DNA from: Parcubacteria bacterium C7867-008 | Lineage (GTDB): Bacteria; Patescibacteriota; Minisyncoccia; Phycocordibacterales; Phycocordibacteraceae | Length of the DNA: 64,000 nucleotides | Direction of reading: 5' to 3' | Assembly: GCA_001189215.1 (NCBI GenBank) | Contig: LFCR01000004.1 | Location: 22,153-86,152 of the forward strand | Shown here: in pieces, positions 14,204 to 19,431 of the stretch | Layout of the letters: the number at the start of each line of letters is the position of its first letter | Numbering within the stretch: position 1 is the first letter of the stretch | Notes under the pieces: model-generated | What the model was told of the DNA's origin: nothing | Databases searched by the model: none | The model's input: only the letters and a program-made list of their open reading frames with translations | Program-made: the position numbers and the translations under genes

Positions 14204-14274
14204 TGGGAGATCGTCTAATGGTAGGACAGCGGCCTTTGAAGCCGTGAATCTAGGTTCGATCCCTAGTCTCCCAG
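14204..14274 (+). tRNA. tRNA-Gln (anticodon TTG), U1:A72 acceptor
   Basis: TGGGAGA...GTCT-AATGGTA-GGAC...GCGGC-CTTTGAA-GCCGT...CTAGG-TTCGATC-CCTAG-TCTCCCA-G. The U1-A72 pair is typical of bacterial tRNA-Gln. Confidence 0.85.
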
Positions 14275-14296
14275 CAATATTTGCTATCATTTATAT

Positions 14297-14668
14297 ATGA
14301 GCAACTCTGTTAAACTTGGCCCAATTATAATTGGAGTACGAAGTATTGAAGAAGCGAAAGGGTTTTATGTAAATGTTTTTGGAATAAATATTAAAGAAGA
14401 AAGCGCAAATTACCTAAGCGCAAATCTTGGCGGTACACATATTGAGCTAGAGGAAGATTCTGAGAACCGTTTTCCAAATTGGGCAAAGAATAATATTGGT
14501 ACTTATAAAAATAGTGAGTTTATAGTCTCTGACATACATTCCTTTGTTCAAGAAGTAGTCAAAAATGGAGGAAAGGTAATAAGTGGTCCTCTTACACGAC
14601 CTTGGGGAAGTATTACTGCTGAGATTGCTGACATAGACGGAAATATCTTTTTGATCAGTCAGCATTAA
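14297..14668 (+). CDS. VOC (glyoxalase/bleomycin-resistance) family protein
   Basis: 123 aa with a betaalphabetabetabeta-module-like pattern (GPIIIGVRSIEEAKGFY...GGTHIELEE...). Strikingly AT-rich relative to its neighbours. Confidence 0.55.
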   Translation: MSNSVKLGPIIIGVRSIEEAKGFYVNVFGINIKEESANYLSANLGGTHIELEEDSENRFPNWAKNNIGTYKNSEFIVSDIHSFVQEVVKNGGKVISGPLTRPWGSITAEIADIDGNIFLISQH

Positions 14669-14707
14669 AGAGAAACCCACCGAAATGGGCTCTCCATCCG
14701 ATGGGTT

Positions 14708-14953
14708 CTATAACGGGAGCTCCGGAAGATTGATCTCGCTCACGAGGAGGTACAATCCATCAAATTCCTCCCCTTTGGCAAGGATGGGTACTGCTGTTTG
14801 ATCACGGTGGTCATAGACCATCGTGCACCCTTCGCCGACGGTGATGGCCATCCCAACCCCTAGATGCTTGCCGGTCCGGCCAAGCAAGGAAGAATTCGGA
14901 CCAGTCTTCTCAAACGTTCGAGTATCTTGCGGGAGAGTAATTTCTCTGGGCAT
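14708..14953 (-). CDS. hypothetical protein (81 aa)
   Basis: Its ATG abuts full repeat copy R1, with GAGAAGGA upstream. Confidence 0.45.
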   Translation of the reverse strand: MPREITLPQDTRTFEKTGPNSSLLGRTGKHLGVGMAITVGEGCTMVYDHRDQTAVPILAKGEEFDGLYLLVSEINLPELPL

Positions 14954-14974
14954 TCACGATGTCCTTCTCACAAC

Positions 14975-15032
14975 CTAGACAGAACGCACCACATGTTGCA
15001 GAAGGGTTCCAACATCGTCCCAGACTGCCAGC
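14975..15032 (+). repeat. island repeat R1 (full 58 bp copy)
   Basis: ctagacagaacgcaccacatgttgcagaagggttccaacatcgtcccagactgccagc. Confidence 0.8.
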
Positions 15033-15109
15033 TCGACATCTCATTTTCATATGGTATTTTCCTACTGGAGCTGAGGCTCTTTTGGACCACAGAAAATAGG
15101 AGATATCCC

Positions 15110-15757
15110 ATGGTTGCGACCATGCACGACCGCCGTGTTGCTATAGCTACAGGCACCGCTCGCGTAGATCCATCAAAGCTGGGTGCAGATTACTGGGCGT
15201 TCATCATCCGGCACGCCGCCAGCCGACTTACTATGGACTATCTGCATGGTCTGCAATCGATCGAGCAGATCATAAAGTCGGACGATCAACCCTATGAACG
15301 GTCATACGACCCGTCAGTCTTTCGTATTCCGTTTGATGCCCGTACGAAGGGTATCGTGTGCGCCCGTCTGAAGGATCTGCCTGTTGACGTCGCGAGCTGG
15401 CCTCAAATACCAGCAGACCCAGGCCACGATGCTTTCTATCAGACAGCGACCGAATCAGTCCTTGTTCTTGAACGGCAGCGCAAGGGTTTCGATTTCTGGC
15501 TGCTCAGATCCGAGTGGGAACTCATGGGTCCGGAGGAGATTCGCCCCTGGCTGCGCGGCCGTTCGCTTCATGCGCGGAAGGTAGATTTGGAAGAGATTCT
15601 CCAGGACAATACAGAGCTCGCCTCAAACATATTGTTCACCCTCCTCCGTGCTCAAGAAGAAACGACCGCACGGCTTACGGAAAGATCTCGAGTCTCCCTG
15701 GAACGGGCGTTCGAACTGAAAAATGTTCTGCACGCCACCGGTCATCCAGTGCGCTAG
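15110..15757 (+). CDS. hypothetical protein (215 aa)
   Basis: AGGAGA RBS plus ATG, 78 nt downstream of R1. GC-rich. Followed by a GGGCCG/CGGCCC hairpin. Confidence 0.55.
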   Translation: MVATMHDRRVAIATGTARVDPSKLGADYWAFIIRHAASRLTMDYLHGLQSIEQIIKSDDQPYERSYDPSVFRIPFDARTKGIVCARLKDLPVDVASWPQIPADPGHDAFYQTATESVLVLERQRKGFDFWLLRSEWELMGPEEIRPWLRGRSLHARKVDLEEILQDNTELASNILFTLLRAQEETTARLTERSRVSLERAFELKNVLHATGHPVR

Positions 15758-15799
15758 TTTACGGGCCGTGCCATTAAGGTGCGGCCCAACTCATATCAC

Positions 15800-15830
15800 A
15801 AAGGTTCCAACATCGTCCCAGACTGCCAGC
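15800..15830 (+). repeat. island repeat R2 (right-half copy)
   Basis: aaaggttccaacatcgtcccagactgccagc, lying between convergent gene ends. Confidence 0.8.
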
Positions 15831-15845
15831 AACGAAATAGGAAAA

Positions 15846-15865
15846 GCGACGGTGTTTGCCGTCGC
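15846..15865. terminator. hairpin gcgacgg-tgttt-ccgtcgc, with U-run on the minus strand
   Basis: Perfect 7 bp stem directly downstream of the minus-strand gene 15875..16249. Confidence 0.55.
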
Positions 15866-15874
15866 CTCATCTCC

Positions 15875-17756: not shown

Positions 17757-17788
17757 AAAAGGTTCCAACATCGTCCCAGACTGCCAGT
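17757..17788 (+). repeat. island repeat R6 (right-half copy)
   Basis: aaaaggttccaacatcgtcccagactgccagt. Confidence 0.8.
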
Positions 17789-17823
17789 AAAATTATCTAA
17801 AGATTTTCTGATACAGTAGAGCG

Positions 17824-18114
17824 ATGAGCCGCGTCACAATCGTTGCTATTGTTTCCGCCTTCTGTTTTTTATGTGGAGTAGCTGCCACGGTATATGGACC
17901 CTATGAACAGTCCACGCACGGCGGTTTAATATTTGGAGTTTTGGGTATATCCTGCGTCTTTTTAGGCTTACTTCAGATCTGGTCTGAGCGATTAAAACTT
18001 GGTCAAATACTGATGCTGATTCCAGGCTTTAAAAGCTCGTCATATACATTAATCGGTTTAGGATCTATCTGTATCGGTATAGGAGTGACTGAGATACTTC
18101 TGGTACTTGCCTGA
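17824..18114 (+). CDS. hypothetical integral membrane protein (96 aa)
   Basis: 3 predicted TM helices. Confidence 0.5.
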   Translation: MSRVTIVAIVSAFCFLCGVAATVYGPYEQSTHGGLIFGVLGISCVFLGLLQIWSERLKLGQILMLIPGFKSSSYTLIGLGSICIGIGVTEILLVLA

Positions 18115-18127
18115 ATATAAAAGTTCA

Positions 18128-18159
18128 AATATCGTCCAGGATTGCCAGCATCCAAATTT
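18128..18159 (+). repeat. island repeat R7 (degenerate right-half copy)
   Basis: aaaagttcaaatatcgtccaggattgccagc. Confidence 0.6.
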
Positions 18160-18220
18160 ATAAACAGAAAACAACCGCCTGTGAGAAGCTGGTGGGCGTT
18201 CTCCGAGGCGGGCGTCTTTG

Positions 18221-18622
18221 TCAGGCTGGTTTTTGTAGGTGAACCCCAATGAGGCCCAGTTCATGATTGTCCTTGCCGACATCTTCGAAATCGAAGTCGC
18301 CGGGCACAATGGTCATGACTTCCTGGATTCGGGCTGCGATTGCAGGGAACTGCTTTTGTTCCCCAAACACGACAATAAACGTTGGACCCACCCAGACACG
18401 CTCAATGCCTGCGGTGCCATCGAGCCCTTTGAACAATTCAGGGATTTTCTCACCCTGCCCGTGGAGATATCTCGAGTAGCCGCGAAGAAACTTACCGTCT
18501 CTGAACGAAGCCGTCACTACTTCCCAGACCATTGGAATCTTGTAGACAGGGTCGACGATCTGGAATGCTAGGCGGATACCGCCTGTGCCTTCCGCTCTGC
18601 CGTATAGAACTAATGGTTTCAT
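18221..18622 (-). CDS. hypothetical protein (133 aa)
   Basis: AGGAAGGAAGG RBS plus ATG abutting the degenerate full repeat R8. Confidence 0.55.
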   Translation of the reverse strand: MKPLVLYGRAEGTGGIRLAFQIVDPVYKIPMVWEVVTASFRDGKFLRGYSRYLHGQGEKIPELFKGLDGTAGIERVWVGPTFIVVFGEQKQFPAIAARIQEVMTIVPGDFDFEDVGKDNHELGLIGVHLQKPA

Positions 18623-18640
18623 GTTCGAACCTTCCTTCCT

Positions 18641-18690
18641 CTAGACAAAACCTATCACATGTTGCAAAGGGTTTAAGTCTCGTCCAACCC
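18641..18690 (+). repeat. island repeat R8 (degenerate full copy)
   Basis: ctagacaaaacctatcacatgttgcaaagggtttaagtctcgtccaacc. Confidence 0.55.
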
Positions 18691-18730
18691 GATATACTGA
18701 ATCTTATGTCCAGAATATATACTTACAATT

Positions 18731-19009
18731 ATGGAAAAGGTTGGAAGTGCACCAAAGCCTGGAGATACTATCTACTTAGATACAGAGTTATATGTAAGTC
18801 ATGGAGTCGATGATGTTATTGGCGGTAAAGCGGTAATCAAAGAAGTGCTGCAGGCATATGGAGCCATTTTTATAACAACTGAACTCGATCCGTTGGCTCA
18901 ATATAGGTGGGAAAATGGATTGGAGCTGGAGCAAGAACGACTCAAGCAAAAGTTTGGTGATTCATGGGCGCATTTTGAACCCGACTTAAGACCTGAATTT
19001 AACGACTAA
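18731..19009 (+). CDS. hypothetical protein (92 aa)
   Basis: ORF downstream of R8. Confidence 0.4.
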   Translation: MEKVGSAPKPGDTIYLDTELYVSHGVDDVIGGKAVIKEVLQAYGAIFITTELDPLAQYRWENGLELEQERLKQKFGDSWAHFEPDLRPEFND

Positions 19010-19017
19010 AGAGCATT

Positions 19018-19353
19018 TCAGCGTCCACTCAGATTGCTAGAAATCTTATTTAAGAACTCTCTCTTTTTTGCTTTATTGAAAAGAATAAAAATACTCATAA
19101 TTGCAGCAACTGGAACTACAACTAAACCCGCTAGCGTCACATAATTCCAGATTTTTCCTGCACGCTCGGCTTCGTTGTAGGTGTTAAGGGATTTAGAAAA
19201 TTCCGCCAACATCTTTACGCACTCTTCGCTCCGTTGCTCTTTTGGTGTGTTGATACAGACACTAGCCTCACGGGATGGAGATAGCGCAGAAACGTAACTC
19301 GAAGTCATTAATCCAATACTTATGGCGGTAAGTAGTACAAATATTTTTAGCAT
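19018..19353 (-). CDS. hypothetical secreted/membrane protein (signal peptide plus C-terminal TM)
   Basis: N-terminal signal-like segment and C-terminal hydrophobic helix. AT-rich. Confidence 0.5.
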   Translation of the reverse strand: MLKIFVLLTAISIGLMTSSYVSALSPSREASVCINTPKEQRSEECVKMLAEFSKSLNTYNEAERAGKIWNYVTLAGLVVVPVAAIMSIFILFNKAKKREFLNKISSNLSGR

Positions 19354-19431
19354 GTCTTAATCCTAGCATTTGGTAATTACTTAGATCGATAGATTTCACG
19401 AGTTTATGGACTCCATGCTATTCTCCCTCAT

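Follow-up and report, generated by a model that had tools for sequence, protein, structure and literature searches.

How did a run of small genes come to stand directly behind a tRNA gene, and which enzyme could have put them there? The question is raised by a 64,000-nt stretch of the genome of Parcubacteria bacterium C7867-008 (contig LFCR01000004.1, positions 22,153 to 86,152; the window, hereafter), in which a tRNA-Gln(ttg) gene is followed by about 5 kb of small open reading frames (ORFs) on both strands. An initial annotation, made from the letters of the DNA alone, had read this region as a case of tRNA-targeted island accretion. An acquired mosaic at the tRNA-Gln 3' end is indeed what we find, but the generic tRNA island has to be given up for an ordered series of single-gene cassettes, each bounded by a short motif. 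The best-supported reading of the island is an array of attachment-site-bounded cassettes that accreted at tRNA-Gln and holds no large serine recombinase (LSR) gene of its own; it does not appear to be a classical integron. We consider it likely that at least nine mobile cassettes were inserted serially at tRNA-Gln, with the motif serving as the attP-type arm of an LSR site and the tRNA end as the attB-type arm.

Motif-bounded units in the window and in other Patescibacteria

The island is ordered by a direct repeat that the initial annotation had overlooked, GGTTCCAACATCGTCCCAGACWGCCAGC, 28-35 nt long, of which seven copies and two decayed ones occur in the 64 kb, all confined to the island. 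The consensus is GGTTCCAACATCGTCCCAGAC[A/T]GCCAGC, and the starts of successive copies (Table 1) lie 798, 494, 366, 391, 707 and 361 nt apart. Six of the seven copies are within 3 mismatches of the consensus, compared with 0 in 100 shuffles, and when the window was scanned with a position-weight matrix (PWM), using shuffled sequence as control, all seven scored 26-61 while the best shuffled score was below 0. The seven copies are all in direct orientation, each interval holds one ORF on either strand, and the site that closes each unit reads A.AAAGGTTCCAACATCGTCCCAGACWGCCAGC (~30 bp). The proximal border of the array is the 3' end of tRNA-Gln itself, GGTTCGATCCCTAGTCTCCCAGC, which resembles an attB-type arm of the repeat. 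Neither inverted repeats nor a hairpin were found at the motif sites; the motif folded no better than its shuffles (z mostly >0), and Rfam gave no match to it at gathering and permissive thresholds, the tRNA being the sole match in the island.

The exact 25-mer of the motif was searched in a species-representative genome collection, in metagenomes and in viral contigs. It was found at no fewer than 80 genome loci, all in metagenome-assembled genomes of Patescibacteria (at least 42 assemblies/species, labelled Paceibacterota, Parcubacteria, 'Saccharibacteria', Nomurabacteria and Berkelbacteria), and in more than 120 metagenome stretches; the viral contigs searched gave no match. Allowing up to 6 mismatches, and with genome loci limited to 8 kb, we counted 446 copies in 161 sequences, and orientation was uniform within the locus in 159 of these. 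Conservation spans about 35 nt (A.AAA + 28-mer + AA) and does not extend into the flanks. Segments between motifs, taken over the 80 genome loci plus the window, have a median length of 518 nt and one ORF each. Among 235 single-ORF cassettes, 136 are co-oriented with the motif and 99 (42%) run opposite to it. Co-oriented ORFs start 19-28 nt past the motif and stop 1-10 nt ahead of the next one; those on the opposite strand leave 50-80 nt on each side, with a terminator hairpin and a promoter. The junctions that bear a motif were ++ in 40 cases, -+ in 29, +- (convergent) in 26 and -- in 21, so that the motif is just as present at junctions where no promoter is required on either side.

Several readings of the motif were discarded along the way. 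A structured RNA was rejected because Rfam was blank except for the tRNA and the motif was less structured than its shuffles; a coding repeat, because the motif lies outside the cassette ORFs, its antisense frame being relevant only inside LSR genes (see below); and a DNA-uptake sequence, because the 64 kb hold no copies outside the array. Sigma-54, extracytoplasmic function (ECF) and dif-like readings did not fit in their spacings, as judged by eye.

The cargo is diverse. Among 150 proteins encoded by cassettes of other arrays, those that could be recognised fell into 64 Pfam families, NUDIX being commonest (8), followed by histidine phosphatase, HAD, nucleoside deoxyribosyltransferase, diacylglycerol (DAG) kinase, alpha/beta and other hydrolases, and methyltransferases. 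In the island, Pfam, NCBIfam and PADLOC gave no match except for the VOC protein of the first unit, and the immunity or toxin cargo expected by the initial annotation was therefore not borne out. Two window cassette proteins that were searched had 1-2 relatives each among 5.8 billion proteins; the 215-aa protein had two matches, one of them identical and from Parcubacteria bacterium C7867-008.

The same cassette can stand in different contexts. Positions 17761-18137 of the window (motif 6, the 96-aa ORF and the start of motif 7) are 87% identical to locus L040 of Parcubacteria bacterium C7867-007; the homology is bounded by motifs at both ends, and the neighbouring cassettes are unrelated. Such motif-to-motif recurrence was also seen in L008/L075, L030/L064/L075 and L017/L051, and from these borders cassettes appear to move as units. 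A search for strain variants of the window locus recovered the same contig alone.

The position behind tRNA-Gln also recurs. A co-oriented array lies directly 3' of tRNA-Gln(ttg) in twelve further loci and of tRNA-Gln(ctg) in two more. The order dnaX-tRNA-Gln-array is found in at least nine of the twelve, with dusB upstream in 8 of the 9 loci with a dnaX orthologue, and DnaX at these loci is 65-70% identical to that of the window. None of the window cassettes is present at the dnaX-tRNA-Gln locus of those species. Between L021 and L075, 78% identity over 2,046 nt ends at the last base of the tRNA, beyond which the motif alone is common. Since backbone homology ends at that base and unrelated genes follow, the island was acquired and is not ancestral; the obvious objection to the initial annotation, that relatives might carry the same genes in the same place, was put to the data and failed, as the backbone is common to relatives as far as the final tRNA-Gln base and the genes after it differ wholly. 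An array at a conserved locus in many species could otherwise have suggested ancestral backbone, in which the repeat is a neutral intergenic sequence resembling repetitive extragenic palindromes (REP) or miniature inverted-repeat transposable elements (MITE). We give this almost no credence, given that gene content differs entirely between relatives, that the repeat is at least 95% conserved across species in which DnaX is only 65-70% identical, and that it occurs only in arrays, not dispersed, and lacks terminal inverted repeats.

An array start was visible in 59 cases. In 15 of these, a co-oriented tRNA (Gln-ttg, Gln-ctg, Ala, Met or Pro) stands no more than 2 kb upstream; no start follows an anti-oriented tRNA. 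With an alignment score of 9, versus 0-4 for most others and 2.7 ± 1.4 in a shuffled-motif control, tRNA-Gln(ttg) has the most motif-like tRNA 3' end in the data. A partial second tRNA-Gln 3' end was observed tens of nt downstream of the intact tRNA in L001 and L126 (positions 1-140), and in L126 the stop codon of an LSR gene falls on this partial copy. Such copies may be footprints of earlier integrations.

Large serine recombinases and the attachment site

The enzyme linked to the site in relatives is an LSR, not the tyrosine integrase of classical tRNA islands. One motif-matching contig, L079, encodes an LSR with Resolvase, Recombinase and Zn ribbon domains, the last codons of which run antisense through a complete copy of the motif (...ELVAVWDDVGTGLTISL*; the reverse complement of the motif translates as LLAVWDDVGTF). 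The L079 element is circular: the protein is borne by 13 contigs, and eight of them, on inspection, proved to be a single ~5.70-kb sequence in different rotations, its ends overlapping by 55 or 30 nt. Apart from the LSR gene and one motif copy, this circle has genes for a rolling-circle Rep, a Shedu-like SduA_C protein and two proteins without family match. A second, independent circle (P0030; 5,867 nt), recovered as exact rotations in two samples, has the same layout and again one motif copy. Because each circle bears a single copy inside the 3' end of its LSR gene, we take the motif to be the attP region of these episomes.

The family to which this LSR belongs gave 1,797 matches at E<=1e-10, the named sources being Parcubacteria, Paceibacterota or Patescibacteria; its best PDB match is SPbeta SprA (E=1e-11). 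C-terminal tails were compared in the best 120 of the 1,797 homologues of the L079 LSR. These share the C-terminus ...PKNGDxxx(M/L)L and then diverge. In 20 of the 120 the tail is (A/G)VWDD(V/I)(G/R)T, which is the motif in antisense; in 40 it is (D/E)SN(Q/P/L)...SYH, a tRNA T-arm in antisense; and 23 stop at ...L(G/R)(D/E) (including ...MLGD), reading across the 3' end of tRNA-Gln. The tRNA-Gln of the window accounts for the ...MLGD* tails, as the reverse complement of its 3' end, GCTGGGAGACTAG (CTG GGA GAC TAG), reads L-G-D-stop. Within the set P0001-P0120, the last 10-16 codons span the attachment site, and the tail differs between the excised (...AVWDDVGT...) and the integrated form (...MLGD*, or ...LDSNQD...SYH at other tRNAs).

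All five LSRs of the third tail class that we looked up lie on tRNA-Gln (L094-L098), and a sixth such element (L126) came from the metagenome matches. In all six, tRNA-Gln is convergent with the LSR gene, whose stop codon lies inside the tRNA 3' end. The integrated elements run 1.9-6 kb, end at a motif co-oriented with the tRNA, and carry Rep, helix-turn-helix (HTH) proteins, and Shedu-like (SduA_C) or SMODS/SLATT proteins, although L098 consists of the LSR gene and the motif alone. The layout is thus tRNA-Gln, LSR, distal motif, and a motif-bounded cassette array lies beyond the element in L094, L095 and L126. L096 and L097 occupy the window's own dusB-dnaX-tRNA-Gln locus, and the ABC-F gene at which L094 ends borders the window island too. 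Partial LSR genes at three additional metagenome loci had the side and strand expected. When the LSR gene was joined at ...ATG to the reverse complement of the distal motif, an in-frame tail was obtained in 5 of 5 cases (MLAVWDVIGT, MLAVWDAVGT, MLTVWDDVGT, MLGVWDDVGT and MLAVWDYLGT), that is, the first tail class. These restored tails make the distal motif the partner of the tRNA-side junction, with attL at the tRNA-Gln/LSR junction and attR at the motif, and they indicate that the C-terminal tail of the recombinase switches upon integration.

The integrated elements might also be seen as the source from which arrays decayed: serial complete LSR elements at tRNA-Gln would have lost LSR, Rep and most cargo, and the cassettes left behind would be immobile. 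The elements do end in the same motif and hold the tRNA-proximal position, their size goes from 1.9 to ~6 kb with L098 as the barest form, and the 80 metagenome matches include no cassette circles. We nevertheless regard decay as unlikely. The cassettes are compact and regular in where ORFs stop and start relative to the motif, an outcome that random deletion is unlikely to have produced 235 times, and identical cassettes with motif-to-motif borders stand in different arrays. In addition, in a putative LSR-element circle (L085, whose ends overlap by 15 nt), a cassette-like ORF lies directly against the motif next to the LSR, and a second, weak motif is present upstream. As a speculation, an element such as L085 could integrate via one motif and excise via another, depositing or picking up a cassette on the way.

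The geometry of the two site types argues for serial insertion by an LSR. Right-aligned on CAGC, the motif CCCAGACTGCCAGC and the tRNA-Gln 3' end CCTAGTCTCCCAGC match, ungapped, at 11 of 14 proximal positions, whereas the distal GGTTC(C/G)A lies 5 nt nearer the junction in the tRNA than in the motif (left arms compared). In the A118-related Listeria (LI) integrase, the motif for the zinc-ribbon domain is shifted 5 bp centreward in attB relative to attP (Rutherford et al., PMC3783163). Our 5-nt offset matches this published shift, which points to a P-type arm in the motif and a B-type arm in the tRNA end; the zinc-ribbon domain of the LSR would contact GGTTCCAAC. Comparison of the integrated elements by eye showed that tRNA-side and distal junctions share only CAGC at the junction. 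Since CAGC alone is common to both, the crossover probably falls within it, and this would explain why cassettes begin right after ...CCAGC, past the motif as well as past the tRNA. At array junctions, only the left arm and ~5 nt rightward of it are conserved; the right arms are the cassette starts, which are weakly A/T-rich.

The motif is also close to putative promoters. Co-oriented cassettes often have an extended -10 element, TGnTAnnnT, 8-10 nt past the motif or the tRNA, with an ATG 6-7 nt later; it occurs in 20% of copies, compared with 1% of random windows, and three such elements are present in the window (Table 1). This suggests that co-oriented cassettes would yield leaderless mRNAs, and in the first unit the spacing after CCCAGC equals the post-motif spacing of co-oriented cassettes elsewhere. 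A second module of ~30 nt, TCTAGACAGAACnTAnCATAnnTTGCAnAAA, lies directly against the motif on its 5' side and often closes opposite-strand cassettes; in the window copies and the others inspected, the cassette before it ran on the opposite strand. It is found in many loci and species (for example L001, L007, L021, L023, L028, L029 and L031), and its reverse complement reads TGGTAnGTT, a putative outward extended -10 promoter that would use the antisense of the motif, TTGGAA, as -35.

These promoter contacts, and the species-specific variants of the motif, such as CCCACAC and CCCAGAC, would be expected if it were a regulatory DNA or RNA element of an accessory regulon, with arrays arising from gene clustering and homologous recombination between copies. 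That reading is quite improbable in our judgement. Motif orientation stays constant whatever the strand of the gene, and at the 26 convergent junctions the motif lies between stop codon and terminator; the cargo is functionally heterogeneous; the motif has neither an Rfam match nor a structure; and it forms part of the coding sequence at the 3' end of LSR genes, as well as the far border of LSR elements that have integrated. A promoter-only or operator role was likewise rejected, on the uniform orientation and the presence of the motif at convergent junctions.

Features of the window and other recombinase elements

The features of the island are collected in Table 1. The small VOC-family gene of about 35% GC (guanine plus cytosine) that the initial annotation had placed just past tRNA-Gln was confirmed, as were hairpin terminators belonging to some of the genes (three, after minus-strand genes). 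It had also remarked that no integrase was left, and our searches of window ORFs and protein families agree, with no recombinase gene between tRNA-Gln and the VIT1-family gene at 19432. Small ORFs were found on both strands as described, ten of them between the VOC gene and the VIT1-family gene, but the uniform 55-60% GC assigned to them was not. In order, the ten genes have a GC content of 0.533, 0.552, 0.528, 0.462, 0.391, 0.470, 0.430, 0.522, 0.419 and 0.399, compared with a backbone of 0.47 (standard deviation 0.03 for 400-nt windows outside the island). The composition is mosaic, but only 14.7-16.3 kb and 18.2-18.6 kb, about 2 kb, rise above the backbone (52-55%); no gene reaches 56%, and the other genes are at 36-47%.

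Table 1. Coordinates of the tRNA-Gln island in the window, listed from the tRNA outward
Feature	Position	Strand	Details
tRNA-Gln(ttg)	14204-14275	+	ARAGORN and Rfam
First unit	14276-15004		two genes, no motif between: VOC/glyoxalase and 81-aa ORF
Upstream element of VOC gene	14282-14290		TGcTATCAT, ATG 6 nt later; putative leaderless-type promoter
VOC/glyoxalase-family gene	14297-14668	+	Pfam Glyoxalase_2, E=4e-10; GC 35.5%; 21 nt past tRNA-Gln
Terminator hairpin	14673-14692		of 81-aa ORF
ORF 81 aa	14708-14953	-	second gene of first unit
Module TCTAGACAGAACnTAnCATAnnTTGCAnAAA	14975-15004		abuts motif copy 1
Motif copy 1	15005-15032	+	28/28 to W-consensus; PWM 55.3
Cassette ORF 215 aa	15110-15757	+	GC 55%; no recognisable relatives
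Motif copy 2	15803-15830	+	convergent gene junction
Terminator hairpin	15843-15868		of 124-aa ORF
Cassette ORF 124 aa	15875-16249	-
Module TCTAGACAGAACnTAnCATAnnTTGCAnAAA	16267-16296		promoter module of 124-aa ORF (repeat families D3/D4)
Motif copy 3	16297-16324	+
Extended -10 element	16335-16343		TGcTAAAAT, ATG 6 nt later
Cassette ORF 100 aa	16350-16652	+
Motif copy 4	16663-16690	+	2 mismatches
Cassette ORF 98 aa	16747-17043	+	hydrophobic; putative membrane protein
Motif copy 5	17054-17081	+	convergent junction
Terminator hairpin	17089-17111		of 191-aa ORF
Cassette ORF 191 aa	17097-17672	-
Motif copy 6	17761-17788	+	1 mismatch
Extended -10 element	17809-17817		TGaTACAGT, ATG 6 nt later
Cassette ORF 96 aa	17824-18114	+	hydrophobic; putative membrane protein
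Motif copy 7	18122-18149	+	degenerate, 22/28; PWM 25.9; convergent junction
Cassette ORF 133 aa	18221-18622	-	GC 52%
Module TCTAGACAGAACnTAnCATAnnTTGCAnAAA	18641-18669		promoter module of 133-aa ORF (family D4)
Decayed motif copy 8	18670-18697	+	14/28; recognised mainly by the conserved promoter module directly upstream
ORF 92 aa	18731-19009	+	probably an old cassette
Decayed motif copy 9	19014-19041	+	17/28; PWM -10.7, above the 99.99th percentile of window positions (-20.6)
ORF 111 aa	19018-19353	-	hydrophobic segment, putative membrane protein; last unit before VIT1 gene (19432)

Past the last decayed motif, and before the conserved ABC-F gene at 21001, lie a VIT1 and a DUF1295 gene (19432-20955). 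As these had no counterpart in the related loci examined, the variable region may reach to about 21000. Elsewhere in the window, a minus-strand ORF of 203 aa with a lipoprotein-like N-terminus (34920-35531) coincides with the window's GC peak (500-nt windows reach 64%, versus 47%), and this may be another foreign gene.

A separate mobile element of ~5 kb (47172-52215) is inserted in the anticodon loop of tRNA-Ala(TGC), of which the 5' half alone is left in the window (47172-47213). Its LSR gene (47201-48685, minus strand) has its stop codon in the anticodon stem, and the element further contains a LOOT RNA (RF03000; 49120-49253), a HEPN AbiV gene (51417-52151) and several ORFs without family match. 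Its borders are the imperfect repeats TTTGCAATGAA and ATTGCAATGGAA. Homology to L053/L076 halts at 47213 and resumes at ~52224; in those loci, ddl-tRNA-Ala is followed by motif arrays. Two further elements, on contigs L083 (117 kb) and L084 (39 kb), resemble integrative and conjugative elements (ICEs), with RadC and ArdC genes and one for a coupling protein of the TraG/VirD4 type. Both end in an LSR gene of the motif-linked family with a motif-like sequence (e.g. GAGGTTCGGATATCGTCCCAAACTGCCAGC) in its 3' end, and no cassette array was found within 10 kb.

Assembly of the array and comparison with known systems

On the proposed mechanism, each unit would consist of one gene with its own compact promoter, its own terminator if it lies on the opposite strand, and a ~30-bp end site. 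LSR episomes of 5.7-5.9 kb, resembling rolling-circle-Rep plasmids or phages, would carry the site across the 3' end of the LSR gene and integrate at tRNA-Gln so that the tRNA stays intact and a motif copy comes to mark the far side of the insert. With each further event at the tRNA, older units would be pushed outward; growth at the tRNA-proximal end fits the observation that the LSR always adjoins the tRNA. We infer that the LSR also catalyses the insertion of cassettes, mobilising them in trans. Since no LSR gene accompanies the window array, the cassettes in it would either have been inserted in trans or have been left when an LSR element excised via another motif, and the island would be a non-autonomous derivative of an LSR element.

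Several observations weigh against serial insertion by an LSR. The 64-kb window holds no LSR of the motif-linked family, and its one LSR (47201-48685) is 26% identical, belongs to another subfamily and sits in tRNA-Ala. Among the 80 genome loci fetched with the motif (<=8 kb each), only one contains an LSR, and that one is the episome, so the linkage of LSR and array is loose. A canonical LSR requires both arms of a site and will not recombine product sites in just any pairing, and with the sequence to the right of the motif unconserved, the array junctions look like half-sites. Furthermore, 44 of the 59 array starts are not beside a tRNA, motif quality shows no consistent fall away from the tRNA, and the lack of single-cassette circular contigs among the 80 metagenome matches, mentioned above, counts here as well.

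To our knowledge, no platforms other than integrons are well established as stores of single-gene cassettes; integrons rely on one tyrosine-recombinase family and folded attC sites, and we know of no large serine recombinases that build such arrays. The attC sites are imperfect inverted repeats of 57-141 nt (R''-L''...L'-R') that form hairpins and have RYYYAAC/GTTRRRY cores. Like integrons, which may also exist as integrase-less arrays, the arrays described here are made of mostly single-gene cassettes, each closed by a recombination site; the cargo is diverse, much of it without relatives, and content differs entirely at a fixed platform. One ORF per unit, direct repeats between units, variable content among relatives and no adjacent integrase are what a classical integron array without integrase (CALIN) with odd attC sites would show. 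We consider such an array extremely improbable. The site is a short (28-35 nt; ~35 nt in the conserved span), sequence-conserved and unstructured double-stranded DNA motif, lacking an inverted repeat, a hairpin and the RYYYAAC...GTTRRRY core pair, with a fold z that is mostly positive. Cassettes are inverted in 42% of cases and would be expressed from promoters of their own, as opposed to a common Pc. The associated enzyme is an LSR and not IntI: a weak search by catalytic-motif pattern in the 80 8-kb loci and the window gave one Xer-like gene (L008), besides the unrelated LSR of the window, and no recurring IntI-like recombinase; nor did the recurrent neighbours of arrays include recombinase genes. 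Finally, the platform is a tRNA 3' end instead of attI, and there are several arrays per genome. An attC reading of the site was rejected on its length, the lack of dyad symmetry and the lack of IntI.

In function the arrays come nearest to integrons; in mechanism they are nearest to serine-integrase elements and to the serial build-up of SCC units at rlmH (see below). The elements of relatives agree with known serine-integrase elements (A118/LI, Bxb1, phiC31 and SPbeta SprA) in domain architecture (Resolvase, Recombinase and zinc ribbon), in a circular attP form beside an integrated attL/attR form (two circles, six integrated copies, tail frame restored in 5/5), in hybrid-site flanks, and in the 5-bp centreward shift of the zinc-ribbon-domain motif in attB, seen here in left arms. 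Unlike in serine-integrase prophages, attP extends over the final 10-16 codons of the integrase gene, whose tail therefore changes on integration, and an attP-type arm persists as the border of long integrase-less arrays of single genes. A classical tRNA island would have a tyrosine integrase and a repeat of the tRNA 3' end at its far border; here the repeats are the motif, which is related but not identical to the tRNA end.

Two other systems offer partial parallels. The staphylococcal cassette chromosome (SCC) is inserted by Ccr large serine recombinases at the 3' end of rlmH (orfX), a conserved gene, in tandem units of 3-60 kb between short direct repeats, many of which lack a recombinase of their own and depend on one in trans. 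Insertion at a 3' end by an LSR, tandem accretion and recombinase-less units are thus shared. The present units, unlike SCC, are single genes of 0.3-1 kb, present in dozens at several loci per genome; the targets are tRNA-Gln and other sites, the ~30-nt repeat is lineage-wide, and the LSR is distant from characterised ones. Integrative mobile elements exploiting Xer (IMEX) at dif, and the pdif modules of Acinetobacter plasmids, use ~28-bp sites that depend on XerCD without a linked recombinase, the orientation of pdif sites alternating. Gene modules between ~28-bp sites, no dedicated linked recombinase and accretion at one chromosomal site are common to both. The motif, in contrast, has no 11-6-11 dyad and no similarity to dif (by eye, against dif consensus sequences), its sites are all direct, and the recombinase is a serine recombinase.

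More tentatively, and with somewhat less than even confidence, we propose that the arrays form a lineage-wide, LSR-based equivalent of integrons, in which single-gene cassettes, each with a minimal promoter of its own and a single attP-type arm, would be inserted in trans at tRNA 3' ends and other attB-like sites by the LSRs of small rolling-circle episomes and ICE-like elements and exchanged between co-occurring species. The full-text literature covered, which leaves subscription journals outside, held no published precedent for the motif or for the concept. If the proposal holds, gene-capture arrays would have evolved convergently, with a serine recombinase, a linear site, a tRNA platform and cassette-borne promoters. 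The 28-nt motif provides a simple probe for the accessory gene pool in metagenomes, and arrays could be flagged by annotation pipelines; natural LSR/att pairs with apparently relaxed demands on the right arm are of interest for genome engineering. Patescibacteria of this group have tiny genomes and are largely host-dependent. For Paceibacteria and related Patescibacteria, the arrays would amount to a dedicated, fast-turnover pool of accessory genes, and would explain a large share of the hypervariable, relative-less and otherwise poorly tractable small genes in the genomes of the Candidate Phyla Radiation.

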